Shown here: positions 4,303 to 52,400 of the stretch, piece by piece
Layout of the letters: each line of letters begins with the position of its first letter
Position numbering within the stretch: the first letter of the stretch is position 1
Source: an uncultured Clostridia bacterium
GTDB lineage: Bacteria > Bacillota > Clostridia > TANB77 > CAG-508
Direction: 5' to 3'
NCBI GenBank assembly: GCA_947628775.1
Contig: CANRBI010000001.1
Location: forward strand, 4,730 to 68,729
Length of the DNA: 64,000 nt
The notes under the pieces: generated by a model
Database searches by the model: none
Told to the model about the DNA's origin: nothing
What the model saw: only the letters and a program-made list of their open reading frames with translations
Position numbers and translations under genes: made by a program

Positions 4303-4769
4303 TTTAAATCTCCTAAAATCATATTCTAATATATTATATCACTTTTTGTAGTAATTTGTCATTATATTTTCGAATTTTTATATACAAAAGCAATTTTACT
4401 TAAAAATATTATAACAAATGAAAATAACAAAACATCAAAATCAGCATAATAAAAATTACGGAAATAAGGGATTATAGAAAAATAAAACAAAGAAAACTTA
4501 AAATATGACAAAAACATTACAAAATTGTAAAAAAAACTTAACAAAAAAACCTGAAATGACCTTCCGTAAAGTAATAATAAATGCCTAGAAATACATGGAA
4601 AAAATTGCTATTGTAATTTAAAAAAAAATAATTTATATTAGACTTAAGTAAATATATAATATGCGAGAGAAGGGATTAATGATGATACAAGGTAGACACA
4701 CGCAATTTTTAGAAAATAGTATTAATTCTATTTTTCAAAACAAAGTAAAACAAGGAGGTGTTGTATAAA

Positions 4770-7700
4770 ATGAACAAAAAGAAGGACAAAGTAATAGCGG
4801 TATTTATACTTATAATTATGCTAATGAATATGTTATCAGGTATAATAAGTGCAGATTTTGAAACACAAGTAGAAGATACAAATGTATTTTTTGATGTATA
4901 TTTTGATAATGAAAGTCATAATACTGAAGCTAATATAAATGAACAAACAATGCTTACAGCTAACATCAAAATTGAAAATGCGGGAGTTATTGATAATGCT
5001 AAAATAAAATTTGATAATCCAAATTTTAAAATAAATGCTGATGATATTGACCAAAAATACATTAAAGAAGTGAACAAAGAAACAGACGAAATAACACTTA
5101 GTCAAATAACAACAGGAGAAATAAGTATCAAAATACCAATAATATTTGAAAAATACGGAAAAATAGATATATCAGAATTATCAAAAGCAACACCAATAAA
5201 ATTCACTGGAGACTATAAATGTCACTCAGAAGAAATAAGACAAATAGAAAAGAACATGGAAATTGTAGTAAATTGGGTATCATCACCAACAATAGAACTA
5301 CAAAGTGAATACACAAGTTATTTTTCAGACAATTCTCAAGTAATATTAGAACAAACAATAACTTCTACTGATAATGACAAAATGCCAAAACAAGCAGAAA
5401 GAATAGAAGTACAAATTCCAATATTAGATGAACAAAAACCACTACAAACAAAAGTATTAATAGATGATATGATAGCAAATGAAGAATACAAAATAGAAGA
5501 AAATAGCTTAATAATAGAAAACACAAACGACTTATGGGAGAAAAATCAAGACAAATATACCATAATATATACATATCCTGAAACAGTAGAACTAAAAGAA
5601 AGAGAAATACCACAAAACATACAATGTAAAACAAGATTTTATGGAAAATCAGAAATAGCAGAAACACAAAAAAATGAAACAGAAATAGTACAAGAAAAAG
5701 GACAAGCAATACAGACACAATATACATCTACAGAAAGTGTATATAAAGGATACATACAAAATGCTGCAGAAAGAAATACAACAATAGATGAAGTAACACA
5801 AATAAAATTTTTAAAAACTGAAAAAACAATAAAAGAAATAGAAATGGGAACAACAAGCCTTGTTGATGAAAATGAAAATCAGTATCCTATAGAAAATGTC
5901 CAATACGAAAAAACACTACTTAATAAAAAACAATTAAAATCAGTTTTAGGTGAAAATTTTGTACTAACATTCATAAATCAAGAAACAAATGAATTAATAG
6001 CAACAATTGATAGTAATACAAAAGAAGATGAACAAGGAAATATTACTATAGAATATGAAGACAATATTCATAAAATAAAAATACAAACAGAAAATGAAGT
6101 AAAAAATGAAGGTAAAATAACAATTGCAAATGTCAAAAATATAATAGGAAATACAGGATATACAAAAGAACAAATAAAACAATTCAAACAAATAAATAAT
6201 GAAGAAAAAATTAAAGAAATAGATGATACACAAACAGAAATAGCAGTACAAACAGAATTAAAAGATACTGAAACAAAAGCAGAATTAAAAATAAGTACAG
6301 AACAATTAATATCATCACAAACAAATGAAAATGTAGAAATAGAAGTAAATCTATTATCATATAACATAATGCATGAACTATATAAAAATCCTTTAATAGA
6401 AGTAAACTTACCAAAAGAAATACAAGATATAAATGTAAAATCAATAAAAAAGGTATATTCAGACGAATTATCAGTTCAAGATGCAGCATTAATAACAAAT
6501 GACCAAGGACAAAAAGTAATACAAATTCAAATGGCAGGAGAAGAAACACAATATAATAATTCAACATTTAAAGGAGCAACAATAAAAATATTATGTGATA
6601 TAGACTTGAAAAATAAAGAACAACTAGAAGAAGAATATAAACAAGAACAACAAAATCAATCATTAGAAGAAAATCAATTACAAGAACAAATTGAAAATGC
6701 AACTCAAGAAGAACAACCAGAAACACAAATATATACATCACAAATACAAGTAAAATGCACAAATGAAAATTCAAATCAACAATATGAAGAACAAAAAGAA
6801 GTAAAAATTTTAGCATTGGAAGAGCCAAAACAAGAAGTACAACAGCCAGTAGAAGAAAATATGACAGAAATTCAACAAACATCAACAACAGAAGAACAAG
6901 AAGTAGAAGAACATACAAATGAAAAAATAACAATGGAAGTACTACCAAAAACTAATGGTGAACAACTAAAAGATGGAGAAGATGTATATGAAGGGCAAAA
7001 TATATTCTATCAATTAAAAATAAAAAATGTATCAGAAAATGATATACAAAATGCAAAAATAGCAGTAACACATGAAAATGCAATATTCTATCATAATGTA
7101 AGAACAGAAGTTGAAGTAACAGATGAAGATACGGAATCTAATTATGAAGATATATATGAAGAAGATCCAGAACTAAAACAACTAGATATAGATATAGGAA
7201 CAATAAAAGCAGGAGAAACAATAGAAAAACAATATGAAATTTCTGTAGCAGAAGTAGAAGAAGAAGGACAACTTTCAGGAAATATAGTAGTTACAGCTAC
7301 TGATATGGAAAATTTAGAAGTAGAAACAAATAAAAATCCTATAAAACAAGCTGATCTAAAATTAGTAATGTCAATTAATAATTTTTCAAATAAAAGAGAA
7401 TATTATTCAGATCAATCATTAGAAATCCGACTTTCACTTACAAACTTTACAGATGAGCAAAAAGATGCAGATATATATATTCCATTACCAGAAGGAATAA
7501 GTTCTCAAGAAAGACAAGGAGAAGAAGATGAAAACTTTGAATATTTGGGCGTAGAAAATGGAATGTTACATGTAAAAATAAATAATATACGAGCAAAACA
7601 GGTAAGGAACACATCTGTAAAATTATGGATAGATGAATTTGAAGATGAATCAGATAAAAAACAATTTGAATTTTATGCAATTTTAAAACTAAATGAAGAA

Positions 7701-9206
7701 GTTAATTTAAGAACAAATTTTGAAATAATTGAAGTTGCTAGACTAAGAGAACAAGATGTACCTTTACAAGTTAACTTAATTTCGACACCAGATAATAATA
7801 CAGAAGTTTCAACAGGACAACAAATTACTTATACAGGTATAGTACGAAATTATGGATTACAAGATATTGAAAATATTGAAATAGCAATCCAAAAAACAGA
7901 AAACATTATAATAGATAGCATAACAATAGAAGGGGCTGTGGATCAAGAAACACAAGATTATGGAGAAAATTTCATAATATCAAAAATAGCAAAAAATTCA
8001 ACAGCAACAATTACAATACAAGCACATATAACAGAGGATGAACAAGCAGTAACGACACAAGAATTATATGATACATCACTTTATTTTAATGTAAAAACGG
8101 AAGAATATGAATTAATGTCTCCAGAAATAAATCATGAAATAGTTATAGATAATCAAGGGACACAAGATAATCCTTGGTATGGATATCCAGTAAGTAATGG
8201 TAAAATAAGTGGAACTGCATGGATAGATAGTAATAAAGACGGAATAAAAGATGAAGGAGAAGAACGAATACCAAACTTAGAAATTGTACTAATAAATGCA
8301 TTTGAAGATGAACAAGAAGTAATGTATAGTACAATAACAGATGAACAAGGAAATTATGAATTCTCAGATTTAATAGAAGGAAACTACATTATAGGATTTA
8401 ATTATGATAATGTTAATTACCAAATGACAGAATATCAAAAACAAGGAGTATCAGAAAGACAAAACTCAGATGTAATCACAGAATATTCAAGTGATGGTAA
8501 ATTATATGCAATTACAGATATAATAAATGTATCAGAAAAATATGTAACAAATATAGATGCAGGATTTATACAAAAAGATTTATTTGACTTAAGTATGAAA
8601 AAATATATATCAAGAGTAACAATAAGAGATAATAAAAATAATGTTACAACAACAAATTATCAAAATACACAATTTACAAAACAAGAAATACCATCAAAAA
8701 CACTAGAAGGTGCAGTTGTTTTAATAGATTATGACATAGTAATAACAAATGAAGGAGAACTTCCAGGATTTATTGATGATATAACTGATTATATCCCAGC
8801 AGATTTACAATTCCAATCATCAGTAAATAAAGATTGGTATCTTGGAACAGATGGAAATTTACATACTAATAGTTTATCACAAGAAATAATACAACCAGGA
8901 GAAACAAAAACAATAACATTAGTATTAACAAAACAAATGACAAAAACAAATGTAGGAATGATTTCAAATACTGCAGAAATTAGTGCAGCACACAATGAAA
9001 GAAATTCTCAAGACAAAGATTCTATACTAGGAAATAGACAAGATGGAGAAGATGATATAAGTAATGCACAACTATTAGTTTCTGTAAAAACAGGATTAGT
9101 ACAAAGTGTAAATATAACAGTTATTATAACAGTATTACTTGCTATAGCAATGATAATATATATAATTAGAGGAAAGGAGGATGATGAAAGTGAAGATAAG
9201 ACATAA
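4770..9206 (+). CDS. Giant cell-surface protein A1 (~1478 aa). Signal peptide, acidic low-complexity linkers, DUF11/Cna-B (SdrD-B-like) repeat domains, and a C-terminal sorting signal LVSVKTG + TM + RGKEDDESEDKT.
   Basis: Probable start ATG 4770, 11 nt after RBS aggagg. The track ORF begins at GTG 4758, which lies inside the RBS. The protein starts with the signal peptide MNKKKDKVIAVFILIIMLMNMLSG. A Cna-B/SdrD-B-like block reads GTAWIDSNKDGIKDEGEE...TDEQGNYEFSDLIEGNYIIGF. A DUF11-like C-terminal module ends ...NTAEISAAHNERNSQDKDS...LLVSVKTG, followed by a hydrophobic stretch and a basic/acidic tail. It is paralogous to the 44505..49445 product. Confidence 0.8.
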   Translation: MNKKKDKVIAVFILIIMLMNMLSGIISADFETQVEDTNVFFDVYFDNESHNTEANINEQTMLTANIKIENAGVIDNAKIKFDNPNFKINADDIDQKYIKEVNKETDEITLSQITTGEISIKIPIIFEKYGKIDISELSKATPIKFTGDYKCHSEEIRQIEKNMEIVVNWVSSPTIELQSEYTSYFSDNSQVILEQTITSTDNDKMPKQAERIEVQIPILDEQKPLQTKVLIDDMIANEEYKIEENSLIIENTNDLWEKNQDKYTIIYTYPETVELKEREIPQNIQCKTRFYGKSEIAETQKNETEIVQEKGQAIQTQYTSTESVYKGYIQNAAERNTTIDEVTQIKFLKTEKTIKEIEMGTTSLVDENENQYPIENVQYEKTLLNKKQLKSVLGENFVLTFINQETNELIATIDSNTKEDEQGNITIEYEDNIHKIKIQTENEVKNEGKITIANVKNIIGNTGYTKEQIKQFKQINNEEKIKEIDDTQTEIAVQTELKDTETKAELKISTEQLISSQTNENVEIEVNLLSYNIMHELYKNPLIEVNLPKEIQDINVKSIKKVYSDELSVQDAALITNDQGQKVIQIQMAGEETQYNNSTFKGATIKILCDIDLKNKEQLEEEYKQEQQNQSLEENQLQEQIENATQEEQPETQIYTSQIQVKCTNENSNQQYEEQKEVKILALEEPKQEVQQPVEENMTEIQQTSTTEEQEVEEHTNEKITMEVLPKTNGEQLKDGEDVYEGQNIFYQLKIKNVSENDIQNAKIAVTHENAIFYHNVRTEVEVTDEDTESNYEDIYEEDPELKQLDIDIGTIKAGETIEKQYEISVAEVEEEGQLSGNIVVTATDMENLEVETNKNPIKQADLKLVMSINNFSNKREYYSDQSLEIRLSLTNFTDEQKDADIYIPLPEGISSQERQGEEDENFEYLGVENGMLHVKINNIRAKQVRNTSVKLWIDEFEDESDKKQFEFYAILKLNEEVNLRTNFEIIEVARLREQDVPLQVNLISTPDNNTEVSTGQQITYTGIVRNYGLQDIENIEIAIQKTENIIIDSITIEGAVDQETQDYGENFIISKIAKNSTATITIQAHITEDEQAVTTQELYDTSLYFNVKTEEYELMSPEINHEIVIDNQGTQDNPWYGYPVSNGKISGTAWIDSNKDGIKDEGEERIPNLEIVLINAFEDEQEVMYSTITDEQGNYEFSDLIEGNYIIGFNYDNVNYQMTEYQKQGVSERQNSDVITEYSSDGKLYAITDIINVSEKYVTNIDAGFIQKDLFDLSMKKYISRVTIRDNKNNVTTTNYQNTQFTKQEIPSKTLEGAVVLIDYDIVITNEGELPGFIDDITDYIPADLQFQSSVNKDWYLGTDGNLHTNSLSQEIIQPGETKTITLVLTKQMTKTNVGMISNTAEISAAHNERNSQDKDSILGNRQDGEDDISNAQLLVSVKTGLVQSVNITVIITVLLAIAMIIYIIRGKEDDESEDKT

Positions 9207-12200
9207 TAAAATAATAAAATTGCTATTTATAACAATCTTCATAATCCTTCTTATAAATAAACCATCAACAGCTTTAACTAGTAAATCTACTAATTTTGAC
9301 GAAATGAGACAAGAATTACTAAGTTCTGATGGATTTGATATAGATCCAAAAAGCTTTTTTAAAGATATGGAATATTCTATAGATACTCATGTTAAAAAAG
9401 GAGCAGCTTGTATACATGACCATCAAAATACACCTTTGACTAAAGATAGAAAAACCAGCATTTATTCAATTTATGCTGTTGTAGATTTGAATTTTAAACA
9501 GAGCACTTACTCAAAACCAGGAACATTTGTCAGGTATACAAAGAGTTCTCAAAAAACATATACTATGCAAGAAGCGAAAAAAGGAAAAAAAATAACCCCA
9601 ATAGATAAAGCACCATATAAAGATGTTTATCCACAAATTTCGGGTGAAGGACAGGCAAAGACAGCTATATCAGCTTTAGGTTATGCTGCTTATTATGCTA
9701 GAAATGAAAATGAAAATACTGATGATGCTAATAAGTCAAGATTTAGAATGATGTATTTCTTATCAATTAATGCACTATCCAGAAATTCAGACATATTACC
9801 AGTTAAGTTAAATACAGGTAATGGAGGAAGTTATTCTAGAGAAGCGGCAGCACATGGAGATGCAATTGTAGAGATACTTAATTATGCTAATTCTGCTGTA
9901 ACATATAAATTTGATATAAATAAATCAAATAGAAATTACAAAGCTACAAACACACGTCCTGCAGATGAAACAAAAGCATATGTTACATATAATGAAGAAA
10001 ATGATGTTACATATGTTGGACCATACTTTTTCAATTATACATATGAATGGAAACAAAATAAATTAAAAATTGTAGATGTAAAAGCTTCATTAGATAGTTA
10101 TCAAGGAAAGATATTTTATACCCTAAAAAGAGATGGAAATAATTTAAAAAGTTTTGAAGATAAAGATAGTTTCCCTACAGGTTCAGATAATCCGTTTTAT
10201 ATTGCAATTAAAGGCAAACTAAAAGAAAAATTAGATGTGACATTTGTTAATGAATATGATGTTTGTAAGGCAAGAATCATATTTGGTGCAAGTAAAACCG
10301 ATGAAACTGTTTCTCAAGAACGATGTATATTTAAGACTAAAATGACTACTTTAAATGATGCAGTAACAGTTTCTATGGAAGGTGGAACAGATACTAAACT
10401 ACATAAAATAGGATATGATCCTAAGACTGGAGAACAAACAAATCTTGAAGGAGTATTGTTTATATTCCAAAACATGGACACACGTAAGTATATAGCAAAA
10501 GATGGTGGAGAGACTTCTAGAAAAAGTGAAGCATATAAAATACCAACAGATCCTGAAGGTATGATTACATTACCAGATTTAGAAGGAAATTATTGTGCAT
10601 ATGAAGTAGATAACCCAGATAAAAAATATGACGGAGCTTGGAGTGAAACAGAAGGAATAAAATTAGAAATTGGAACAACAACTACAATTGTAAACACACC
10701 AGGTGCGATAGAATTACAATTGCAAAAAGTAGATGGTGACACAGGTGATCCTATAGAAGGAGTAGTATTTAAAATAAAGGAAAATACAAAAGGCTGGTAT
10801 ACAGGAAATATAGATGAACCATTTTCAAATAATGAAGATGATGCAAGTACATATATAACAGATATTAATGGTATAACAAAAGTGCCAAATCTACCATCAG
10901 GAGATTATAGCGCAGTTGAAATAAGTACAAAAGAACCATATGAAATAATAAAAGGTTCAATACCTTTAGATATAGCAAAAAAACCAAATGTAATTCAAAA
11001 CTTTAAAAACGACGAACCACAACCACCACCAGAAGAAGTACCAGATAGAGGAGAAGGACTTGTAAAAGTATTTTCTAATACAAATAACATGGCCCCAATG
11101 GGAGGAATTCAATTTGGAATAAAAAATTGGGAACCAGATAATCCAGAATACAAAATAGAACCACGAGAACCATTAAGAAGTGATAGCAAATATTGGAGTA
11201 ATGTACCTCATACAGGACGAAGACCTACAGAAAAAAAAGACGAAAATGGAAATACAATCTATGAATCATATACATATTATGAATGGGAATTTACAGAAGA
11301 ATTATTATATCAATCAGATCATAAAGAATATGAAATTAAACTAGACAACTACAAATATTATATGAAATCGAAAGAAACATATGTTGCAACAGGTACATCT
11401 CAAACAAATGGAACTGTGCAACTATCTGGAGACATAAGACCAGGTACATATGACTTATATGAATATGGATCATTAAATTCATATGTTATTGTACAACAGA
11501 AATGTGTACAATCAGGATATCGAGTAGGTGATTCATTAGATGTAGAAAATCCTAGAACATATGTAGATATAGAAGGAAATGTATGGGTAGATTATCAAGA
11601 AGGAAAATCATCTACAAGAGATAATAAATTTGCATCAAATGAAGGATTAAATGGAGTAAAAGTAACATTAAAACGAGGAAATAGCGAAATATGCAGTGTA
11701 GCATCAGGATTTGATAGTAATGGAGCATCTCAATCTAGAGGACACTATAAATTCTGGGGAGATATAAATAACTTAAGAATAGAAGTAGATCATTTGGATG
11801 AATATTCAATAGAATTCTCATATAATGGTATTGTATATCAAAGTATAAGTGCTACATCAATAGAACCAGGAGGAACAGCAAAAGCCAAAGAAAACGATAG
11901 TGAAAGAACACAGTTTAATGCTGACTTTTCAACAGTAACAGCAGGAACACAAACAAGTAATGGACAATCAACAAACTTATCAAGAAATAATGGAAAAACT
12001 ATTTTATATAATTCAACAGGTCATAGTAGTAGAGTAGTATACAAAGCTACACAAGATGCAATAGGAACCTTATCAGATGAAGCCTATGCAGATGATCAAT
12101 ATCATATGAAAGCATATACAACAGAAGCTGGACTAAACTTAGGATCACCTAATCAATATGGAGGATATCCATATGACCCAGCTAAAAATTCAATAACAGA

Positions 12201-14796
12201 TATCAACTGTGGATTATTTAGAAGAGATAGTTTAGATTTAGCGATAGCAAGTGACTTATTAGCAGTGGAGACATCAATAAATGGATATTCTAATATTTAT
12301 GAATATAATAAACGTTATGCAAAAATAGCAAATCAAGATGCATTTGAAATAAATATAAAAGAATCAGATATAGGCTATAATGAAACATTATTAAGAGAGT
12401 TATATCCAGAAGATATAGATTATACTAGCAAAAATCATGATGCAGCATATGGAAATATGGAAGAAAACGGATTAAATGTATTCTTAACATATAAAGTTGT
12501 AGTTAGAAATCAATCATCTACACTATCAGCAAAAGTCAATGAACTTGTAGAATATTTTTCTTCAGATATAAAAGAAGTAGTTGCTGTAGGAGGATATATT
12601 GATGAAAATATGACAAATGAAGATTTGCAGAAAATGCCAATAGGTTCAAATGGAAGAAGATACCAAGTAAAAAACACAAGCGGATTTTCAGTTGAAAATA
12701 CTACACAAGTAAGTGGAATTGATTATAAAAAATCTGTAATTAACACAGAAGGATTAGGAACGATACAAGTAGGAGATGCAGTAGAATTTTATATACAAGT
12801 AAGAATGGATCAAGAATCATTTGGAACAAAATTAAATCAAGATTCTTCTGGTAATACACAATTGAGAAATGTAGTAGAATTATATACATGTACAGCTTAT
12901 GATAAAAATGGAAATCTTTGCCCAGCAATTGATTCTGATTCAGCAGTAGGAAACTGTATACCAAATAATATAGATACAATGGAAGATGATACAGATTTTG
13001 CACCTACAGTAGTAATACAACGTTCAGGATCAATAAGGAAAATAAGTGGAACTGTATTTGAAGATCAAACTTCAGAAGCATTAAAAGCAGGAGAAGAAAG
13101 ATTAGGCGATGGAGTTTATGGTTCTGGTGATACACCTATTGATGGTATACGAGTAGATTTAATCGATATAGATAGAGGCATTATAGCACATGTATATGAA
13201 GGCGGAGAAGTAAAGGATGCAACTAAAATAACAGCAGATGGAGGAAAATATGAAATACAAGGATTTATACCAGGAAATTATGTAATAAGATATACTTATG
13301 GTAATGGAACAGGAAAATATACAGCTCAACAATATAAATCAACAGTATTTTTACCAGATTATTCAGGAGTTTCAACAGAAGGTACTATTGTAGCATCAAA
13401 CGAAAGAAAAGACTATTATGAAGCACAAAATGAGGCTAAAACACCAAGTGGAACTGCAACATATTGGGGCTCACCTGAATGGTATAAAGATAATGTTTCT
13501 ACACAATGCTCAGATGCTGTAGATAATTATAGTGGAGAAATGGAAGCAATAGATTCAACAGGTGGACATGAAAAATATTATCGTACACCACGAACAGATG
13601 GAAGTATGAGCAGAACTGAAATAGAAGAACTATGGTCAAATGGTTATGCTGACGGATATCAACATATATTAGCTAATACAGAGATAGATAAGACAATTAA
13701 TATTAATGCATATACACCATGGATGGGATTTAGTGTACAATATGACTATGATTGGATTAAAAGTGGAGATGGAAATTTGGAAAACTTCACAGTTGAAAAT
13801 GTAGATTTTGGTATTTCAGAAAGACCAAGATGTTTAGTGCAAATAGATAAAGAAATAAAACGTATTCAAATATTGAATTCAGATGGAAGTATACTAAGAG
13901 ATTTAACATCACTTGAAAAAGACACGCTTCCACAATATACAAAAACTGAGCCAAAAGAACCAATACAACAATTAAAAGAAACAGGTTCAGATGCAACACC
14001 AAATAGAGGATTTGTAGAATTTGAAATTGACAGAGAATTACTACAAAACCCAACAATTCTTGTAGAATATGAATTCACTGCAACAAATAAAAGTGAAGTT
14101 GATTATAAAGATGAAGAATACTATAAATATGGCGTTTCTTCAAATGCTGATGATAGTACTATCATGAATTTATCAGTAGTAGGAGTTATAGACTATGTAG
14201 ACAATCAAGTATTATATAATAAAGATAGTAATATGATTTCAGAAGGAAATGATACAAAAACAAATGAAGAAAATGGATGGTCTGTAATAGATTTATCAAA
14301 AGCTGAAAACAAAAAATACTTGCAACAAAATGTTCTTGACAACTTATATGATAGTACAGGGTGTAAATTTAATACAGTATTAATAGGAAAAGGATTAGAT
14401 AAACTAATAAAACCAGCTGTAAAAACGGAATCAATAGGATTAGTATTAAATAAAGATTTGCAACAAAATGATATATGGTCATATGAAAATATAGCAGAAA
14501 TAGTAGAAGTTAAGAAAACATGGGGAAGGGAATTACATGCAGAAGATACATCAACATCATATGGAGAAAAATTAGGAAATCTAGACCCAACAGAAGACAT
14601 GGACGATATTGTAAATCCTAAAAATAATCCAGGCACACCAGGTAAAGAACCAGACACAAGTTATACTGAAAGAATAATTATAAACCCACCAACAGGACAA
14701 GACAGAAATTACACATATATTGCAATAATAATCATAACATTACTTGGACTATTAGCAACAGGAATAATAATCATAAAGAAAAAAGTACTAAAATAA
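9181..14796 (+). CDS. Giant cell-surface adhesin B1 (~1870 aa). Signal peptide, an N-terminal putative internal-thioester (TED-like) domain, Cna-B-type stalk domains, and a C-terminal sorting signal NPPTG + TM + KKKVLK.
   Basis: Start is ambiguous among ATG 9181, ATG 9184 and GTG 9190; the RBS ggaaaggagg ends at 9180. The start overlaps the last 26 nt of the upstream gene. An N-terminal conserved Cys sits in GAACIHDHQ (Cys codon 9409-9411). Cna-B-like segments: GDPIEGVVFKIKENTKGWYTGN...PNLPSGDYSAVEIS and GGKYEIQGFIPGNYVIRYTYGNG. The C-terminus reads ...IIINPPTGQDRNYTYIAIIIITLLGLLATGIIIIKKKVLK. It is paralogous to 49468..53769. Confidence 0.8.
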   Translation: MMKVKIRHNKIIKLLFITIFIILLINKPSTALTSKSTNFDEMRQELLSSDGFDIDPKSFFKDMEYSIDTHVKKGAACIHDHQNTPLTKDRKTSIYSIYAVVDLNFKQSTYSKPGTFVRYTKSSQKTYTMQEAKKGKKITPIDKAPYKDVYPQISGEGQAKTAISALGYAAYYARNENENTDDANKSRFRMMYFLSINALSRNSDILPVKLNTGNGGSYSREAAAHGDAIVEILNYANSAVTYKFDINKSNRNYKATNTRPADETKAYVTYNEENDVTYVGPYFFNYTYEWKQNKLKIVDVKASLDSYQGKIFYTLKRDGNNLKSFEDKDSFPTGSDNPFYIAIKGKLKEKLDVTFVNEYDVCKARIIFGASKTDETVSQERCIFKTKMTTLNDAVTVSMEGGTDTKLHKIGYDPKTGEQTNLEGVLFIFQNMDTRKYIAKDGGETSRKSEAYKIPTDPEGMITLPDLEGNYCAYEVDNPDKKYDGAWSETEGIKLEIGTTTTIVNTPGAIELQLQKVDGDTGDPIEGVVFKIKENTKGWYTGNIDEPFSNNEDDASTYITDINGITKVPNLPSGDYSAVEISTKEPYEIIKGSIPLDIAKKPNVIQNFKNDEPQPPPEEVPDRGEGLVKVFSNTNNMAPMGGIQFGIKNWEPDNPEYKIEPREPLRSDSKYWSNVPHTGRRPTEKKDENGNTIYESYTYYEWEFTEELLYQSDHKEYEIKLDNYKYYMKSKETYVATGTSQTNGTVQLSGDIRPGTYDLYEYGSLNSYVIVQQKCVQSGYRVGDSLDVENPRTYVDIEGNVWVDYQEGKSSTRDNKFASNEGLNGVKVTLKRGNSEICSVASGFDSNGASQSRGHYKFWGDINNLRIEVDHLDEYSIEFSYNGIVYQSISATSIEPGGTAKAKENDSERTQFNADFSTVTAGTQTSNGQSTNLSRNNGKTILYNSTGHSSRVVYKATQDAIGTLSDEAYADDQYHMKAYTTEAGLNLGSPNQYGGYPYDPAKNSITDINCGLFRRDSLDLAIASDLLAVETSINGYSNIYEYNKRYAKIANQDAFEINIKESDIGYNETLLRELYPEDIDYTSKNHDAAYGNMEENGLNVFLTYKVVVRNQSSTLSAKVNELVEYFSSDIKEVVAVGGYIDENMTNEDLQKMPIGSNGRRYQVKNTSGFSVENTTQVSGIDYKKSVINTEGLGTIQVGDAVEFYIQVRMDQESFGTKLNQDSSGNTQLRNVVELYTCTAYDKNGNLCPAIDSDSAVGNCIPNNIDTMEDDTDFAPTVVIQRSGSIRKISGTVFEDQTSEALKAGEERLGDGVYGSGDTPIDGIRVDLIDIDRGIIAHVYEGGEVKDATKITADGGKYEIQGFIPGNYVIRYTYGNGTGKYTAQQYKSTVFLPDYSGVSTEGTIVASNERKDYYEAQNEAKTPSGTATYWGSPEWYKDNVSTQCSDAVDNYSGEMEAIDSTGGHEKYYRTPRTDGSMSRTEIEELWSNGYADGYQHILANTEIDKTININAYTPWMGFSVQYDYDWIKSGDGNLENFTVENVDFGISERPRCLVQIDKEIKRIQILNSDGSILRDLTSLEKDTLPQYTKTEPKEPIQQLKETGSDATPNRGFVEFEIDRELLQNPTILVEYEFTATNKSEVDYKDEEYYKYGVSSNADDSTIMNLSVVGVIDYVDNQVLYNKDSNMISEGNDTKTNEENGWSVIDLSKAENKKYLQQNVLDNLYDSTGCKFNTVLIGKGLDKLIKPAVKTESIGLVLNKDLQQNDIWSYENIAEIVEVKKTWGRELHAEDTSTSYGEKLGNLDPTEDMDDIVNPKNNPGTPGKEPDTSYTERIIINPPTGQDRNYTYIAIIIITLLGLLATGIIIIKKKVLK

Positions 14797-17683: not shown

Positions 17684-18208
17684 ATGGATATGTGGCAAGG
17701 GAAACACTTTAGCATTACAGATCCAAAGGATGTAAGAACTGTAATATATCAAATAAATAAAACAGAAAAAGAATTTCTAGATCAATCACCTAAATACACC
17801 ATACAAAGGCTAGACTATTCAGAAGAAATTAGAGGAGAAAATACTAGAAAAACTTTTTATGTCGATAATCCTTCAAAAGATGAAGACCAACTTGTAATTT
17901 TATCTTTCGGAAAAGATAGAGTTGTAGTTAACATGGCCTTACTCGAAGGAAACAAAATATCTATATCAAAAAAACCAATGCCATTAAAATTTGACAGCAT
18001 ATATAACGAAGAAAAAGTAGAATACAGAGAATTTACATATACACCAAATTTAAAAAGACCAATATGTATAATAGACCCAGAAACTGCAGAAGAAGTTACA
18101 CCGAGTCTATACTTTGATGAGCAAACAAATGAAGTAAAAGGAAAATGTAAATTAAAACCATATAAATCTTATTTTGCCTTTGAAATCAGGGACAAAAAAG
18201 ATAATTAA
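17684..18208 (+). CDS. Hypothetical protein (174 aa), no recognisable domain.
   Basis: ORF with RBS aaaagggg and ATG 17684. Lys/Glu-rich with no TM segment. It sits directly upstream of the disrupted T4CP gene and downstream of a consensus promoter. Confidence 0.5.
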   Translation: MDMWQGKHFSITDPKDVRTVIYQINKTEKEFLDQSPKYTIQRLDYSEEIRGENTRKTFYVDNPSKDEDQLVILSFGKDRVVVNMALLEGNKISISKKPMPLKFDSIYNEEKVEYREFTYTPNLKRPICIIDPETAEEVTPSLYFDEQTNEVKGKCKLKPYKSYFAFEIRDKKDN

Positions 18209-25000: not shown

Positions 25001-25135
25001 CTACACCAAAAACTACCATTGAAAGTTGAAATATCATATGCTATAAATATTATAGGAGTAATATGACAAAAAGTTTTATGACTATATGAAAACTCATGAA
25101 ACTATAGGACTCAAAAAAAGAGAAAGGTGATTAAA

Positions 25136-28100
25136 ATGAAGACAAAAACAATTAAAATAATATCATTAATTTTAATTATTTTAATGGTCATATCTATGGC
25201 TTTTTATGTAGTTGACGCAGAAGATCAAAATGTTACTCTTAGTCTCACACCAAAGCCTAAAATAGATATAGTATTAGCTAAAGCAAAAACATCACTTGAT
25301 TTAGGAAATTTTGAAAAAGATATAAAATCAAAACTTTCTAATGAAGGTATAGACACAGATGATGTTAAAGTAAGTGCGATAGAAGCTAATCAAGAAGTTT
25401 TAACAACATCTTTTGATTGGGATCAAGATTTATCAAAAGATATAGGAGATATTAAAATTACTAATGGTGGACGAGATGTTGAGATGATAGGCAATTATTC
25501 AGAAGAAGGAAAAAATGCAATGTGGATAATTCCGGACAAGCAAAACCAAGATCAAAAATTCACTTTTGATTATAATATTGACTTTGGAGATAGTTTCAAT
25601 GCAGCTGGAATGTTATTAAAAGTAAAAGACAATGGAAATACATTGACAGGATATATGTTAAGTTTTAATAAATCATCAAAAAGTTGGTATTCAGGTAGTG
25701 GTAATTATAATGGAGCAATTTGGGAATTTTCATATACCAAAAAAGCAAATACATATAATGTAGAAACAAAAATACTAAAAAAAGGATTGGATATTTTAAC
25801 AGAAGGTACACTTACAGTTGAAACTACTGATACACAAATTAAGGTTTCTGGGGGAGGATTAAGTGAAACAGCAATATATGATATAGAAAAAGAATTTGGA
25901 AATGGATATGGATTTTTCTCAGACCATTATAGTCATGGTTGTGATCAATATGGTAGTTTCAAATTAACTAATATTAATTTACAAACAGAATCAGTAAAAA
26001 CATTTAATGAAGTACTAAGAAGTGCAGACTGGAGAGATGGAGCTTATAAATTCTTGGTAAATGTTGATGAAAAAGAAAATGAAGAATTAGCAAATGCATC
26101 TACATATGGAGAGTTAGCAACAAGATTAATGAATGAAGGTATATATTTTGTAGCATGGGGAAATTCTAAAAACGAAACTCAATTTGAAAACTTAATAAAG
26201 ACAAATGATGATAAGGGTAAGTTTATAACAAATGCAGGATATACATCTAATATTGAACAAACTGCAAAATATATAAAAAGTGTATTAGGAACTTTACAGT
26301 CATCAAATTATTTAATTGTAAATGAACCGATAAAAATAGGAGTAGAACCACCAGGAATATTAACAGGTACTATAGATGAACAATGGACAACTGGTAAATG
26401 GATGGTAAAGCATGATTATGAATATTATGAAAATAATATGGGACAATTTGCGCAATCAAATATGTATACAGATGATTTTACGACAACATTTAATAAAGTA
26501 GGAAAATATGAAATAACATATAAAAATGTTCCAATAAATCCAACTGAAATATATGTACATAGAAGACCTATAGCATTATTTGATATGGCTATAAATGAAA
26601 CCAATGTAACACTAACAGACAAATCATATGATTTGGATAAAGAATCACAAGATAATGGAATAAAAGAAAAACAATGGAAATGGAAAGAACCTTCAGAAAC
26701 AAGTTGGCATGAAGGACAATTAACTACAATAGATAAAACAAAGGAATATATAGTACAATTAAGAGTAAAAGATTTTCAAGAAACATGGAGCACACCATGT
26801 AATAAATATATTAATTTAAAATTAGATAATATAAAACCAATAGCAACATTTGATTTTAAAAACAGTGAAATTACACCATATGACAAATTAGAAATAACAG
26901 ATAATTCATATGATCCAGCAGGCAAGACGATTACAAATAGAAAATGGGAAGTATTTGATAAAGATAATGTATCAAAATATAATAGTACAACACAAAAGGA
27001 AACTTATACAGATTTAACACCAGGACAATATAAAATGAGTTTAACAGTAACAAATGAATCTGGTACACAATCAGAAACATTTTCAAGATATTTTACAATT
27101 GTAGCAGATTCAATTGCACCAGAATTTGTAGCCACTCCAATAGAATCAGATTGGACAAAAGAAGTAACAGTAAATTTAGAGTTTAATGACCCAGGACTAA
27201 GTGGTTTTAAAAACTATAAATATGAAATAACAACATCACAAGATAAACCATCACAATATTCTAATCAAAGTACAAATGCAAATGATCAAATAACTTTAGA
27301 TGGAACGGGAATAAAGTATATACATATCATAACTGAAGATATAGCAGGAAATATAAGTGCAAACAGAATTATAGGATCATATAAATTGGATAATCAACCG
27401 CCAGAAATAACAGTTACAGCAGATTTCCAAAATGCAGTAGTAGATAAATTACAAGTTAATATAAAGACAGATGATCCGCATTCAGGAATGAAAAGTCTTA
27501 AATTAGATGGAAATGATTTAAAAAGTATTAATGATGATACAGTAGAGATACTAAAAAATGGAACATATACAATTACAGCAGAAGACCAACTAGGTAATAC
27601 AAGTACAAAACAAATTCAAGTAAACAATATAAATTATGAATGTAATGCAGGATTAGGACATCCAAACTACAGTTCAAGTCTTGATAAATGTCCTATATGC
27701 AAACTTTTAGAAGGAGTTACAGTAACAAATCATGAAGCTGTATATGATAAAACTGAAAAATCTCTAACATATGATAATCCAAATGAAGCTGAAATAGTAG
27801 AATATTATAATGGTTCAACACAAAAACCAATAGAAGAAGGTTCATATACATATGTACTAAAAATAAAATATAATGGAACTGAATATAACACAGGAATATC
27901 AGGAACTTATACAATACATCCAAAACCAATAACAATTACATCAATAACTGCAGAAGATAGACAATATAATAAAACAGATGTAGTTAATATTTCAGGAGGA
28001 CAACTAGTAGGAGTAGAACAAGGAGATGAAGTAGGATTTGAATTACCACAAACAGGACAATCAGTAGATGTAGAAGGTGAACAAATCATACCAGTGGTAG

Positions 28101-30457
28101 AAGTAGGAACACATAATGTGCGAATAGATGAAATAACATTAAATGGAGCCCAAAGTCACAACTATAAACTAATACAACCAAATATAACAGATGTATCTGT
28201 AACTATTACAAATAAAGAACTAACAATTGTTGATATAATAGCTGAAAACAGACAATATAACAAAACAGATATAATAAATTTATCAGGAGGACAATTAGTA
28301 GGAATTGAAGAAGGAGATAATGTAGGATTTGTATTACCACAAACAGGACAATCAGTAGATATTATTGAAAATCAACCAGTATCAGCACCAAATGTAGGTG
28401 AACACTACGTAAAGATAGGTGAAATTAAGCTAATAGGAGAAAATGCATCTGAATACATATTAATAGCTCCTAAAACAACAGAAGTAAAAGTAACAATTAC
28501 ACCAAAAGATATAAATATTACTGAAATAAAAGCGGAAGACAGAGAATATGATAAAACAAATATAGTACAATTAAAAGGAGGACAACTAATAGGACTAGAA
28601 GAAGGAGATACAGTAAATTTTGTACTACCAGAAACAGGAACAATAGATGATGTAATAATAGGAAAATATAATGTACACATTCCAGAAATAAAATTAACAG
28701 AGGAACAGGCATACAATTATAACCTAATAGCACCACTATTTGAAGATGTATCAGTAACTATTACACAAAGAAAAATTAAACTAACAGATTTACAAGCAAT
28801 AGACAAAAAATATGATAAAAATGCAATAGTTAAATTAAAAGGAGAAACATTTGATAGAGCAATAGAAGGCGATGATGTAAAAGCAATAATTCCAGAAACA
28901 GGTATAGCAGAAAGCCCAGATGTAGGACAATGGAAAGTAGGAATGCAAAAAATAACACTAGAAGGAGCAGATAGTGACAATTATCAAATAATTCAACCAG
29001 AATATGGAGAAGTACTAGTAAATATATTTGATCCAGAAAAACCATTTATACATATGGAATCTGATGTAGTGGCAGTAAATGAAGACAAAATAGAAATTTC
29101 AGAACCTCAAGTAGATGAAGAAGGAAATGTTATATATGAAACTGATAAAAAAGCCATAGATGTAAGATATGGAGACGAAATAGCATTACAAATATCTGCA
29201 TATAATCAAGGGATTGGAGCTGGATATGTAAATGAAATACAAGTAGAACTTCCAGAAGGTTTAGAAATGCTAGATTCAGAAACAAATAAAGTAAACAAAT
29301 GGAAATCAACAAAAGACAATACATATACAACAACTAAACTTTCTTTTGAAGGAGGAGTAAAAAACGAAATTCCAGGAATGGAAGACAACATTTTAAGCGA
29401 AAAATCTCTAATACTTGAATGTAAAGTAACAGCAAAAGATATAAACACCAAAGAACTAATAATAAAAACAAAAGCAAACCAAGCAGATACTATAAATCAA
29501 ACAATAGAATATAATGAACAAAAAGAAGAACAAAACACAGTACAAGATGAAAACACAGTACAAGATGAAAACACAATACAAGATGAAAATACAGTTCAAG
29601 ATGAAAATATAATAGAACAAAAAGAAGATGAAGAAGACGAAGTTCAAGAAGTATCTAGAATATCACAACAATTAGAGGAGACTGAAATAAAAGCAGAAGA
29701 TGAAATACAAGAAAGAGAGCAAACAGAAGACACAGAAAATACAGAAGACCCAAATGATATCGAAGATACAGAAACAGAAGAAAAAGAAACAACAGAAATA
29801 TATAGCACATCAGAAACAAAATTAAATGTAAAATATACAGATTTTAGTATAAGTGCAAAAATAAAACATATATATAACATAACAGTAGGACAAGAAATAC
29901 CATCAAACCCAGAGCCAAACACAATAACGAAATTTGAAATACACAGAAAACAGATAGCTCAAACAAAAATACAAGTTATATATGAAGTAGCAGTTGAAAA
30001 TAAAGGAAACAGTGAAGGAGAAGTAGACAAGGTAATTGATTACTTGCCACAAGGTCTACAATTCCAACAATCTCAAAATCCTGATTGGACTTTATCAGAG
30101 CAAAACACAATAGAAACAACAGAATTTGGAACAATTAAACCAGGAGAAACAAAAACAAAAGAAATTATACTAAACTGGGACATGTCACAAACAGCAGGAA
30201 CAAAAGAAAATAAAGTAGTATTAACATCTATACATGATATAGACCAAAGAACAATATATGCTGATCCAAATAAAACATTAGAAAAAGAACAAATAAAGGG
30301 AAAAATTTTAGAAACAAACAATACTTCACAAACAACAGTAATAGGATCAGTAAAAACAGGTATACAAGTTTATATTACAATAATAGCATCATTATTATTA
30401 CTAATATTATTGCCAATAGTATTTTTAATAAAAAGAAAAAGAAATAATCTTTCTTAA
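25136..30457 (+). CDS. Giant cell-surface protein C (~1774 aa). Signal peptide, N-terminal β-sandwich-like region, four tandem MBG (YGX-type) domains, an acidic ENTVQD-repeat linker, a DUF11-like C-terminal module and the sorting signal IGSVKTG + TM + KRKRNNLS.
   Basis: ATG 25136 encodes MKTKTIKIISLILIILMVISMAFYVVDA. The track ORF begins at GTG 25127. There are four ~95-aa repeats of the form ITAEDRQYNKTD..NISGGQLVG.EEGD.VGF.LPQTGQ...NVGEH.V.I.EI.L.G..A..Y.L..P, which fit the MBG domain. The C-terminus DWTLSEQN...PGETKTKEIILNW...SVKTGIQVYITIIASLLLLILLPIVFLIKRKR is homologous to the family A C-termini. Confidence 0.8.
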   Translation: MKTKTIKIISLILIILMVISMAFYVVDAEDQNVTLSLTPKPKIDIVLAKAKTSLDLGNFEKDIKSKLSNEGIDTDDVKVSAIEANQEVLTTSFDWDQDLSKDIGDIKITNGGRDVEMIGNYSEEGKNAMWIIPDKQNQDQKFTFDYNIDFGDSFNAAGMLLKVKDNGNTLTGYMLSFNKSSKSWYSGSGNYNGAIWEFSYTKKANTYNVETKILKKGLDILTEGTLTVETTDTQIKVSGGGLSETAIYDIEKEFGNGYGFFSDHYSHGCDQYGSFKLTNINLQTESVKTFNEVLRSADWRDGAYKFLVNVDEKENEELANASTYGELATRLMNEGIYFVAWGNSKNETQFENLIKTNDDKGKFITNAGYTSNIEQTAKYIKSVLGTLQSSNYLIVNEPIKIGVEPPGILTGTIDEQWTTGKWMVKHDYEYYENNMGQFAQSNMYTDDFTTTFNKVGKYEITYKNVPINPTEIYVHRRPIALFDMAINETNVTLTDKSYDLDKESQDNGIKEKQWKWKEPSETSWHEGQLTTIDKTKEYIVQLRVKDFQETWSTPCNKYINLKLDNIKPIATFDFKNSEITPYDKLEITDNSYDPAGKTITNRKWEVFDKDNVSKYNSTTQKETYTDLTPGQYKMSLTVTNESGTQSETFSRYFTIVADSIAPEFVATPIESDWTKEVTVNLEFNDPGLSGFKNYKYEITTSQDKPSQYSNQSTNANDQITLDGTGIKYIHIITEDIAGNISANRIIGSYKLDNQPPEITVTADFQNAVVDKLQVNIKTDDPHSGMKSLKLDGNDLKSINDDTVEILKNGTYTITAEDQLGNTSTKQIQVNNINYECNAGLGHPNYSSSLDKCPICKLLEGVTVTNHEAVYDKTEKSLTYDNPNEAEIVEYYNGSTQKPIEEGSYTYVLKIKYNGTEYNTGISGTYTIHPKPITITSITAEDRQYNKTDVVNISGGQLVGVEQGDEVGFELPQTGQSVDVEGEQIIPVVEVGTHNVRIDEITLNGAQSHNYKLIQPNITDVSVTITNKELTIVDIIAENRQYNKTDIINLSGGQLVGIEEGDNVGFVLPQTGQSVDIIENQPVSAPNVGEHYVKIGEIKLIGENASEYILIAPKTTEVKVTITPKDINITEIKAEDREYDKTNIVQLKGGQLIGLEEGDTVNFVLPETGTIDDVIIGKYNVHIPEIKLTEEQAYNYNLIAPLFEDVSVTITQRKIKLTDLQAIDKKYDKNAIVKLKGETFDRAIEGDDVKAIIPETGIAESPDVGQWKVGMQKITLEGADSDNYQIIQPEYGEVLVNIFDPEKPFIHMESDVVAVNEDKIEISEPQVDEEGNVIYETDKKAIDVRYGDEIALQISAYNQGIGAGYVNEIQVELPEGLEMLDSETNKVNKWKSTKDNTYTTTKLSFEGGVKNEIPGMEDNILSEKSLILECKVTAKDINTKELIIKTKANQADTINQTIEYNEQKEEQNTVQDENTVQDENTIQDENTVQDENIIEQKEDEEDEVQEVSRISQQLEETEIKAEDEIQEREQTEDTENTEDPNDIEDTETEEKETTEIYSTSETKLNVKYTDFSISAKIKHIYNITVGQEIPSNPEPNTITKFEIHRKQIAQTKIQVIYEVAVENKGNSEGEVDKVIDYLPQGLQFQQSQNPDWTLSEQNTIETTEFGTIKPGETKTKEIILNWDMSQTAGTKENKVVLTSIHDIDQRTIYADPNKTLEKEQIKGKILETNNTSQTTVIGSVKTGIQVYITIIASLLLLILLPIVFLIKRKRNNLS
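27925..29035 (+). repeat. Four tandem ~285-nt coding repeats encoding MBG-type domains inside surface protein C.
   Basis: The repeated amino-acid blocks are (A/I)EDR(Q/E)Y(N/D)KT(D/N)...GGQL(V/I)G(V/I/L)E(Q/E)GD.V.F.LP(Q/E)TG; nucleotide identity between units is visible by eye. Confidence 0.7.
29533..29615 (+). repeat. Tandem 18-nt repeat (aacacagtacaagatgaa, about 4.5 units) encoding (ENTVQD)n.
   Basis: aacacagtacaagatgaaaacacagtacaagatgaaaacacaatacaagatgaaaatacagttcaagatgaaaat, in frame within the acidic linker of protein C. Confidence 0.8.
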
Positions 30458-43199: not shown

Positions 43200-43566
43200 G
43201 TAATAAAAAAAGACATATATATAATAAATCATCTTTTACACCTTCTTGATACAAAAAAATCAAAACACAAATAATAATAATATCATCTATATATAGCTTA
43301 ATACCAAACATTTCAAATATAGGTTGTTCGATATCATTAAAAGCATCAAAATTAAAATTTAAAGGGCCAAATGAAAATAAATTAGAAATCGTATTACTAT
43401 TTTTAGTAATATGATTTTTTTCTTCTTTAGAATTATCTGTATTTTTAGTATTATTGTTATTAAAAATAGGATTAGTATTTTTAATAATTTTATCACCGTG
43501 AGTGATAAAATTACGTGGAACATGTGAAAAATAGCGGTATCTGGAAAATGGAAAATAAAAAGCCAT
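43189..43566 (-). CDS. Hypothetical N-rich small protein with a C-terminal hydrophobic segment (uncertain gene).
   Basis: 125-aa ORF overlapping the minC 3' end by 11 nt, with low complexity. Could be spurious. Confidence 0.25.
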   Translation of the reverse strand: MAFYFPFSRYRYFSHVPRNFITHGDKIIKNTNPIFNNNNTKNTDNSKEEKNHITKNSNTISNLFSFGPLNFNFDAFNDIEQPIFEMFGIKLYIDDIIIICVLIFLYQEGVKDDLLYICLFLLLIL

Positions 43567-43569
43567 AAT

Positions 43570-44435: not shown

Positions 44436-44504
44436 ATAATATGAGGGGGATTTTATACATAACCCAGATAAAATCAAAACGATAAATATTTAGGAGGCGT
44501 TAAT

Positions 44505-49467: not shown

Positions 49468-52400
49468 ATGAATAATTTAAAGAAATACTTACTAATGATA
49501 ATAAGTTTTGTATTTATATTTATGGTTTGCTTATTTTCAACAAATACATCACAAGCAGCTACATTATCAGTTGATGAAATAAAAAAAGGTTCAAATGTAG
49601 GAGCAACGGTAAGATTAAATTTGAATACATTGAATTCTAGAAACGATTTGTATTGTGTTCAACATCATCAATTTCTAGATGCAAGTAATATATATACTTA
49701 TAGAGTTGCAAAATATGTAGAAATAGTAGGAAATGATGCAAAATCAGGTGGAACAACAGTTTCAAATAAAGATAATGGTACATTGGCATATATTATTAGT
49801 AAAAAAGAAGGATATAGATATGGATCTTCAACTGGACAATATGCTATGTGGCAACATATAAATACATGGTTTAGTAGTGTTGGAGGTAAATTTGGACTAA
49901 ATTGGATGTGGACTTTTAATGATGTAGGAGAAAATAGCTATATAAGAGAAGGAAGAGAATATGCAAATAGAATTGGAGATACAACAGTAACAGAAGTAAA
50001 AGATGAAACTAAAAAAGAAGATGTAAAAGTAACAGCATACAAAAATTCAAAAGGTGTACCATGTCTTAGAGTAGGGCCATTTAAATACAAATTTCCTGGA
50101 AATATACAAGAAATGAGTGTAAAAGATCAAGATGGAAATAAAATAACTTCTATAGCATATAGTATATATGAAGGAAACGAAGAGAAATTTGTTGAATTAA
50201 ATAAAATACCAAGTGACAAAAACTTCTATATTTCAGTAAAGATAGATCCTAATGTTACTAAAATTACTAATATATCAGGAAAAGTAAAATTTGAAGATAC
50301 AGTATTAACAGCAAGATTATGGTTCTTACAATCAAGCGGACTTCAACATTTACTAATAGTAGACCCTGGAACGAAAACTAATGAAGGAAACTTAAATTTC
50401 AATTTTAACTATGATATAGACTTAACTGGTGATATAGGAATTGAAAAAGTAGATGAAGACAATCATGATTTGAAATTACCAGGTGTTGGATTTATTATCC
50501 AATCTAAAGAAACAGGAAAATACATAAAAAGAGAAGGCGGAACAATAAAATATGTAGATACTAGGGAAGAAGCAGAAGTTATACCAACAGATGAAACAAC
50601 TGGAAAAATATATGTAGAAGATGTATTAGTAGGAACATACTTATTCTATGAGGTAAGTAACCCAAATTATGGATATGAACTTCTTAAAGACCCAATAGAA
50701 GTAAAAACAAGTTCTCAAACAGGTAAATATACTTTAATTACAAATAGGCAAATATATGTAAAACTATCTGGATATGTATGGATAGATAAACAAAGTGAAA
50801 AACTAACAGTTAGAAATGACTTATATAGGAATGATACTAAAGATGATGAAGATGAATTATTTGAAGGTGTAAAAGTTAGACTAAAAGATACATCAGGAAA
50901 TATCCTTCAAGAAAAAGTAACAGATAGTAATGGAGCATATTTATTTGAAGATGTGTTAATTGATGAATTAGGAAATTACTATATTGAATTTGAATATGAT
51001 GGATTAACATATGAGAATGTAAATATAAACTTAAGTGCAGAAAATGGTTCAAAAGCATCTGAAGGTAACGAAAGAGAAAAATTTAATAACAAATTTGCAC
51101 GAGTAGATGCAGATACAAGAGACACAGTTAGTGTAAAAGATTCTGCAGGTACAGAAACCTATAAAATAAAATATGAAATACAGGAAGGCGGACATAGTGC
51201 AAAAATAATTAAAAATCAATGTTTCATAACAGCAAATACAACAGATGCAGGTCTTACAATAACATATGAAAGAGGAAAAGGAATTAAAGAATTAAAAGGA
51301 TTTAACTTAGGCGTTTATGAAAGAGAACAAACAGATGTGGCTCTAATGCAAGATGTTGACAATGTAAAAGTAGGAGTTAAAGGATATAATCACATTTATA
51401 AATATGGATCAAGGATAGGAGAAAACAATGAACCAGTTGAAGATGCATGGAATGTAGGTGTAAAATTCAGAAGTGAATATGGTTCACATAAATATCTAAG
51501 ACCAGTATATAAAGCAGATGCTAATTATCATGATGAAACAGATGAAAGTAAAGACTTAAGAATGTTCTTGACATATAAAATAGGTTTGAAAAATCAATCA
51601 ATTTTTTATGAAGAATCAACAAACCAATCAACTGCTAATGAAGAATCAGAAATACAATCAACTTCTGATGGAGAATCAAAAATAAAATCAACAAAGATTA
51701 ATTCAATTGTAGATTACTATGATAAGAGATATAGATTTGTTGATGCAGGTACAGGTTTTGATGATAAAACAGGAACAATAACAGGAAGTTTACCAACTAA
51801 AGTAAATGATATAACTATACCAGAAAACGAATATTTATCAGCAGAAGTTGATACATCATCTGTATTAATTAAAAATAAAACTGAATATGTATATGTACAA
51901 TTTGAATTATCAAGACAAAATATCTTAGACTTGATAAATGATAAAGAAGCTGGAGCTGAACCTTCAGAATATCTAGAAAATATAGCAGAAATTACATCTT
52001 ATACATCATATGCAGATAAACAAGCAACACAACTTTATGGTTCAGTAGATAATGATGCAGTAGCTGGAAATGCAACAGCTGGAGATATAAACACATATGA
52101 AGATGATACAGATACAGCACCAAATGTTGGACTTACAGTTGCAAATGCAAGACAAACAACAGGTATGATATTTGAAGATAAAGAAGAACAACATTACTTA
52201 GATGAACAAAATATACGTCAAGGTAATGGAAAATATGATGAAGGTGAAAGCAAAGTAGGAAATGTCCAAGTTCAATTAATTGATCTTGACACAGGAAAAG
52301 TAGCTGAAGTTTATGATGAAAAAGCTGTAGATGAAGCAACAGGCAAATTAGGTAAATTTACAGGTGATTTATGTACAACAATAACAGGAGATGATGGTTC

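Follow-up and report, generated by a model that had tools for sequence, protein, structure and literature searches.

Paired giant surface proteins

A 64,000-nucleotide stretch from an uncultured Clostridia bacterium (assembly GCA_947628775.1, contig CANRBI010000001.1, positions 4,730 to 68,729; this whole stretch is referred to as the window) contained two loci at which genes for giant surface proteins were paired, A1 with B1 and A2 with B2. Thioester domains (TEDs) mediate covalent target binding by Gram-positive bacteria and are the basis of engineered protein-ligation tools. Taken as a whole, the results are best explained, and this explanation is regarded as likely, if B2 is a thioester/isopeptide/ester (TIE) adhesin with a thioester between Cys63 and Gln293, and if B1 is its diverged paralogue. 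The four genes were located as follows:

4758..9206, + strand: A1, upstream partner of B1; DUF11 and SdrD_B; C-terminal SVKTG and transmembrane (TM) helix; without a TED-like domain
9181..14796, + strand: B1, 1871 amino acids (aa); paralogue of B2 over ~1100 C-terminal aa
44505..49445, + strand: A2, upstream partner of B2; DUF11/CLIPPER and SdrD_B; C-terminal GIKTG and TM helix; without a TED-like domain
49468..53769, + strand: B2, 1433 aa, taken from the open reading frame (ORF) list and its translation; signal peptide, TED-like domain, stalk, ~850 aa without family matches, and MPSTG

B1 (727-1871) and B2 (362-1433) aligned with an E-value of 1e-71 in BLASTP, and their paralogy is clear over the C-terminal ~1100 aa. 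The first ~300 aa of the two proteins gave no BLASTP alignment with each other.

Conservation and motifs of the B2 N-terminal domain

A divergent class II-like TED (aa 31-320) very probably forms the start of B2, as judged from sequence comparison together with structure modelling. A word-indexed search returned one homologue of the B2 N-terminus, and an exhaustive hidden Markov model (HMM) search built on B2 and that homologue retrieved 242 representatives, with E<=1e-10 for 170. Clustered at 50% identity, the family therefore numbers no fewer than 242 clusters. Most of the representatives were 1300-1800 aa in length and carried the domain at the N-terminus. Conservation was counted in a MAFFT alignment of 134 family N-termini, in which only five columns were at least 94% conserved: C63 (134/134), G88 (132/134), G203 (133/134), P204 (126/134), and Q293 (132/134). 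The features of B2, with counts from this alignment and positions in the structure model described below, were:

49468..49557, + strand: signal peptide, aa 1-30 (...TSQA/A), read from the sequence; putative cleavage site
49558..50427, + strand: predicted thioester-type domain, aa 31-320, with a head of beta strands and three helices, an inserted beta-sandwich, and a long beta-hairpin
49654..49656, + strand: Cys63 in LYCVQ ([YFL]C-Phi-zeta), predicted thioester Cys; codon TGT; invariant (134/134); model strand E31-33
49837..49851, + strand: Gln124-Trp128 (QYAMW), TQxx-Phi-W helix motif; Gln124 is CAA at 49837-39; model helix H92-107; not the bond partner
50026..50421, + strand: beta-sandwich insert and hairpin (24 residues per arm), aa 187-318, a class II feature; DSSP strands 157-228 and hairpin E235-258/E265-288 (model numbering)
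50344..50346, + strand: Gln293 in LQHLL (Phi-Q-zeta-Phi-Phi), predicted thioester Gln, within the peptide FLQSSGLQHLLIVDPGTK; 132/134; model hairpin tip
53656..53766, + strand: cell-wall sorting-type signal; MPSTG, DNRDY, TM helix, and KKRVNK

In solved TEDs, the bond-forming Cys lies on a strand in the motif [YFL]C-Phi-zeta, and the central helix bears the motif TQxx-Phi-W (TQxA(I/V)W in its earlier form), whose Gln and Trp pack against the bond and are dispensable; the helix-motif Gln makes only a hydrogen bond to the Cys backbone (PMC4450167, PMC6194298). The solved Cys-Gln pairs are C138-Q267 in CpTIE, C71-Q266 in BaTIE, C88-Q292 in EfmTIE86, and C296-Q467 in SaTIE (PMC4450167, PMC6194298). 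All three TED motifs were reproduced as logos of the B2 family. The flanks of Cys63 read Y76/F40/L14 before the Cys, followed by I52/V49/L13 and Q60/E40. The helix motif read Q-x-A-I/L/V-W/Y, with Q in 106 of the 134 sequences at the Gln124 column, and W (96/134) or Y (32/134) in 128 of them at the Trp128 column. Gln293 was followed by N93/R20/H6, then L/M/V/I, and then I/L/M/V. The helix motif of B2 starts 61 residues after Cys63, as the initial annotation had counted for Gln124, and its offset of 61-65 residues is close to the 58 residues between Cys88 and Trp146 of EfmTIE86.

Among the 34 proteins of the window (18,764 aa), only B2 contained [YFL]C-Phi-zeta followed by QxA-Phi-W, and this pair of motifs did not arise in any of 20,000 shuffles of the B2 N-terminus. 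The B orthologues in two human-gut Clostridia metagenome-assembled genomes (MAGs; L001 and L002) retained YC[IV]Q, QxA[VM]W, and ITPSTG, and the strict pattern for the downstream Gln motif was matched in the L002 orthologue only. The Pfam TED model, PF08341, was the top family among the family members, matching 3 of 45; two of these scored above the gathering score (23.6 and 23.9 vs 22 bits), and the above-threshold matches covered positions 2-101 of the 102 in the profile, with the Cys motif at their start. B1, B2, and eight family members had no names in the sources queried.

The initial annotation had placed an N-terminal thioester-type domain in B2 with Cys63 as its candidate Cys, and this proposal is sustained by the invariant column and the class II-like model. 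It had also looked to orthologues for conservation of the Cys, which for B2 extended across the family and to both MAGs. Its quoted strings and codons were exact, namely AACIHDHQ (aa 75-82) and GEGQAKTAI (aa 155-163) in B1, and LYCVQHHQ (aa 61-68) and STGQYAMWQ (aa 121-129) in B2. Cys residues were indeed scarce, with 13 in the 1871 aa of B1 and 6 in the 1433 aa of B2. In B2, the pattern exceeded what chance would give, but in B1 the context of the Cys was no better than chance.

Predicted structure and covariation

An AlphaFold2 (AF2) model of B2 31-332, computed with 44 homologues, had a mean predicted local distance difference test score (pLDDT) of 94.3 and a predicted template modelling score (pTM) of 0.82. 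In the model, Cys63 was on a short strand that was followed by three strands and three helices, with Gln124 and Trp128 on the second helix. The helices were followed by a six-strand sandwich and then by a hairpin with 24-residue arms that bore Gln293 in its tip. Head, inserted sandwich, and a hairpin that runs back to the head together give a TED fold, and the element order and the long hairpin correspond to the class II description. In Foldseek, 6fwy was the sole match at E<=1e-3 and was collinear over 286 columns, with a global template modelling score of only 0.22. The fold evidence also recovered the TED-containing chains Cpa, SfbI, FNE, and CpTIE.

Covariation, calculated as mutual information with average product correction over 134 sequences and 44,850 pairs, served as an AF2-independent proxy for the Cys-Gln contact. 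Positions 283/285 of the hairpin (50314-50322) and 83/85 of the head strand (49714-49722) covaried at ranks 2, 3, and 7, which supports the predicted insertion of the hairpin into the head. Pairs between the Cys flank and the Gln flank were found at rank 20 (62-298), rank 59 (58-297), and rank 63 (61-297), and ~0.2 such pairs were expected in the top 63.

Domain architecture and sorting signals

Ala30, at the end of the B2 signal peptide, was kept in 115 of the 134 family members. The stalk of B2 was recognized by Pfam as SpaA (321-422) and SdrD_B/CarboxypepD_reg (448-537). B1 ended in a signal of the same type as that of B2:

14683..14793, + strand: B1 sorting-type signal; NPPTG, QDRNY, TM helix, and KKKVLK

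The TIE-type layout of signal peptide, N-terminal adhesive domain, Ig-like stalk repeats, sorting motif, TM helix, and basic tail was recognized, with NPPTG as the sorting motif in B1 and MPSTG in B2, and the family sorting motif [TIVM]P[PSN]TG was present in 86 of 109 long members. These features indicate, at the level of sequence, that B2 is a wall-anchored TIE-type fibrillar adhesin with a predicted Cys63–Gln293 thioester.

Between the stalk and the sorting signal, B2 aa ~540-1390 (50730-53650) comprised ~850 aa that were shared with B1 (26% identity) and across the family. This segment and its B1 counterpart had no Pfam or NCBIfam match except for one weak SdrD_B in B1, and it represents an extensive stretch of stalk or body that is uncharacterised. 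A low-complexity insertion rich in Ser, Thr, Glu, and Gln (YEESTNQSTANEESEIQSTSDGESKIKST) was located within it at aa ~708-741 of B2 (51590-51690) and was without a counterpart in the aligned B1.

A1, A2, and a 1776-aa ORF at 25127..30457 ended in [SG][VI]KTG, a TM helix, and a basic tail (9100-9206, 49340-49445, and 30350-30457, respectively). Each A-B pair carried two distinct sorting-like signals, and this was kept in L001 and L002 (LSIKTG in A vs ITPSTG in B). As negative controls, A1, A2, and the 1776-aa ORF scored below zero against the family HMM.

Proposed mechanism

The analyses above show the homology family, its pattern of conservation, the class of fold, and the order of domains; formation of the bond, its reactivity, and the nature of the target may be envisaged as follows. 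In the predicted fold, the head of B2 consists of a small beta-barrel and three helices, and the hairpin reaches into it from the inserted beta-sandwich. After folding, an internal thioester is predicted to join Cys63 on the head strand to Gln293 at the hairpin tip, NH3 being lost in the reaction. Gln124 and Trp128 of the central helix would pack against this bond, as TQxx-Phi-W does in solved TEDs. A nucleophile of the target, typically a Lys amine, would then attack the thioester and yield an isopeptide link to Gln293, which would attach the bacterium to the target by a covalent bond. The domain would be spaced from the wall by the SpaA/SdrD_B-type stalk and the ~850-aa region, and the MPSTG signal would anchor the protein to the wall.

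The N-terminal domain of B1

The corresponding part of B1 was longer and was resolved into the following features:

9283..10416, + strand: B1 N-terminal domain, aa 35-412; C-terminal half homologous to the B2-family sandwich and hairpin; head orphan, longer, and more helical
9409..9411, + strand: Cys77 in AACIH, candidate thioester Cys; codon TGT; in the family Cys column by HMMER, three MAFFT modes, and the A3 alignment
9643..9669, + strand: GEGQAKTAI, aa 155-163; equivalent neither to the helix motif nor to the bond Gln; aligns near the family GYG loop
10315..10317, + strand: Gln379 in VSQERC, candidate bond Gln near the hairpin tip; in the Gln293 column by HMMER, MAFFT, and hhalign

B1 35-420 scored 19.8 bits against the family HMM, and 500 shuffles averaged -5.2 with a standard deviation of 3.7 and reached 3.6 at most. 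When the domain was split, aa 271-420 carried all of the signal (20.6 bits). HMMER, three MAFFT modes, and A3 placed Cys77, G280-P281, F339-Y340, and Gln379 in conserved family columns. Other than near-identical cluster mates, no homologues of the B1 N-terminus were found in the word-indexed search or in scans of genome and metagenome contigs; the full-length mate differed at one residue, and the other was a 939-aa N-terminal fragment. B1 shares the sandwich/hairpin scaffold with B2 and has a head that has diverged beyond detection. The same thioester chemistry is possible in B1 because Cys77 and Gln379 sit at corresponding places, but the chance that B1 uses it is put at somewhat below even. 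The initial annotation had assigned a TED to both paralogs, which is supported for B2; the evidence for B1 is weak, and only the C-terminal half of its domain is demonstrably homologous.

Weighing of alternative explanations

Several results weigh against the proposed reading. The Pfam TED and NCBIfam TQXA models missed both B1 and B2, as full-length proteins and as N-terminal fragments, up to an E-value of 10, so that the search with Pfam thioester models suggested in the initial annotation gave no match to either protein. Profile and single-sequence searches of PDB sequences, including those with two Pfam-TED-positive members, retrieved no TED chain. The Cys-to-Gln spacing of the family (219-287, median 240; 230 in B2) is longer than the 171-204 of solved class II TEDs. 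For B1, the head (aa 35-270) scored -4.8 bits against the family HMM, within the range of its shuffles (mean -2.2, maximum 9.3), and the 19.8 bits of the whole domain are not support for Cys77 because the head contributes nothing. The strict Cys motif failed in B1, with an Ala at position -1 of Cys77 that was seen in none of the 134 family members. A position-specific scoring matrix (PSSM) of the Cys motif picked the Cys77 window solely via the Cys column, and without this column the context was not top-ranked; the Gln-motif PSSM did not pick Gln379, and the local motif fit was poor. The helix-motif column corresponded to R187..M191, with neither Gln nor Trp, in HMMER and three MAFFT modes. 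An hhalign comparison with the family was local only (B1 319-388, E 0.003, probability 10%), BLASTP gave an alternative hairpin register that would remove the Gln, and the AF2 model of B1, which was guided by the family multiple sequence alignment, had a pLDDT of 60.8 with model residues 73-124 below 50. B1 contained 13 Cys, which makes an N-terminal Cys unremarkable. The B1 results speak for an alternative in which B1 would have no thioester: its head, replaced or degenerate, would be unrelated to that of TEDs, and Cys77 and Gln379 would be in TED-like positions by coincidence or as relics without a bond. On the other hand, the two residues fell in the two invariant family columns with HMMER, in all three MAFFT modes, and in the A3 alignment, and the order of secondary-structure elements in the B1 model mirrored that of B2. 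The probability of this explanation is considered to be only slightly short of even.

For B2, two other assignments of the conserved residues were considered. The domain may have a TED fold in which the invariant Cys is catalytic, forms an intermolecular disulfide, or ligates a metal, and no internal thioester exists. This would agree with the marginal sequence similarity of the family to validated TEDs and with the fairly common occurrence of His66 near Cys63 (72/134). However, Gln293 was the sole other near-invariant polar residue, and the family lacked a conserved His, Asp, or second Cys from which a catalytic dyad or triad, disulfide, or metal-binding site could arise. The TED signature is matched exactly by the Cys/Gln pair together with the three motifs and the class II topology. 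Catalysis or disulfide formation by Cys63 was rejected on the lack of other conserved Cys, His, and Asp, and the explanation as a whole is very unlikely. The initial annotation had instead paired Cys63 of B2 with Gln124, and Cys77 of B1 with the Gln of GEGQAKTAI. The QxAMW string of B2 does fit the historical TQxA(I/V)W motif, but the motif Gln in solved TEDs is helical, dispensable, and not the bond partner (PMC4450167, PMC6194298). In the B2 model, Gln124 was likewise helical (H92-107), and it was substituted in 28 of 134 family members, whereas Gln293 was substituted in 2. GEGQAKTAI had been taken to lie at the equivalent position in B1, which is instead occupied by R187..M191, and its Gln158 aligned to neither Gln column. 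Both pairings are therefore extremely improbable, and checking the proximity of Cys63 and Gln124 would address the wrong pair because Gln124 is the helix-motif Gln. The Cys63–Gln293 pair remains the preferred assignment for B2.

Gene neighbourhood

The window had 27.5% GC and belonged to a chromosome of the spore-forming Clostridia type, encoding SleB/YpeB, SpoIIE, MreBCD, MinC, PBP2, RF-1, and PcrA. Copies identical to the source DNA were found in metagenome assemblies only. The neighbours of B1 and B2 were a DUF11 protein of 1482-1646 aa, minC, spoIIE, a Mur ligase family gene, and vanW. The end of A1 and the start codon of B1 overlap by 26 nt (9181-9206), and 22 nt separate the A2 stop from the B2 start, which suggests that each A gene is transcribed together with its B gene and that their translation may also be coupled. 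A scan with Rfam for regulatory RNAs, such as c-di-GMP riboswitches, found none upstream of the adhesin operons.

The A2-B2 pair was flanked by minC and spoIIE, and spoIIE was followed by a WG-repeat gene (window 42588-57990). This gene order was shared with L001 and L002, whose B orthologues were 39-42% identical to B2. A2-B2 is a conserved chromosomal adhesin locus and not a mobile island, since the order was the same despite the ~40% identity of the B proteins. A 196-aa ORF between minC and A2 (43570-44160, - strand) had no Pfam match, and ORFs of similar size and orientation were present at the matching position in both MAGs.

Elsewhere in the window, the ORF at 19058-20617 matched T4SS-DNA_transf/TraG-D_C, a type IV secretion coupling protein (E 2e-81). 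It had a TTG start, and the match began at profile position 52. Its neighbours were housekeeping genes (DnaJ-domain, calcineurin-like metallophosphoesterase, and AAA-domain genes), and the two ORFs upstream of it (17684-18208 and 18598-19080) had no Pfam matches. An integrated conjugative element may have left this ORF behind as a remnant.

Comparison with known thioester adhesins

TEDs that are missed by Pfam at the tips of fibrillar adhesins are already established (Monzon et al., 2022, PMC9210967). The B2 family is not conceptually new because many such Pfam-invisible TEDs have been reported there. It contributes a family of considerable size from gut Clostridia that had no annotation, corrects a common confusion of the TQxA-Phi-W helix motif with the true bond-forming Gln, and names residues that are useful for annotation and for mutation (C63 and Q293 in B2; C77 and Q379 in B1). 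A broader proposal is that the B2 family forms a third, previously undefined TED subclass that is confined to uncultured low-GC gut Clostridia and is characterized by the longer Cys-Gln spacing, a Gln at the tip of an unusually long hairpin, and obligate pairing with a DUF11/CLIPPER 'A' protein bearing an xKTG signal, with B1 having swapped its head while keeping the Cys, the Gln, and the scaffold. This proposal is rather unlikely.

Class I TEDs (SfbI, 5A0L, and Cpa, 2XI9, of Streptococcus pyogenes; CpTIE, 5A0G, of Clostridium perfringens; Walden et al., 2015, PMC4450167) differ from B2 in having no sandwich insert and a Cys-Gln spacing of ~130-150. Cpa is a pilus tip protein that is encoded beside a pilin and sortases, whereas none of the window's ORFs of 150 aa or more contained a sortase domain, and no pilin-sized gene was beside B1 or B2. 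A Cpa-like pilus-tip role was rejected on these grounds, and of the tip-adhesin-like character proposed in the initial annotation, what holds is that B1 and B2 are adhesin-like surface proteins bearing sortase-type signals.

Compared with class II TEDs (EfmTIE86, 6FWY, of Enterococcus faecium; BaTIE, 6FWV, of Bacillus anthracis; SaTIE of Staphylococcus aureus; Miller et al., 2018, PMC6194298), B2 has only ~10-12% sequence identity. The proteins of its family are far larger (1300-1800 aa) and contain an extended stretch without assignment. Thr seldom precedes the helix Gln, sorting signals read [TIVM]P[PSN]TG instead of LPxTG, and the B2 gene has a DUF11/CLIPPER 'A' gene as its partner. However, the predicted domain of B2 likewise occupies the N-terminus, the protein that bears it combines a signal peptide with a stalk and a sortase-type signal, and like class II TEDs, the domain has a beta-sandwich inserted before the long hairpin that bears the conserved Gln.

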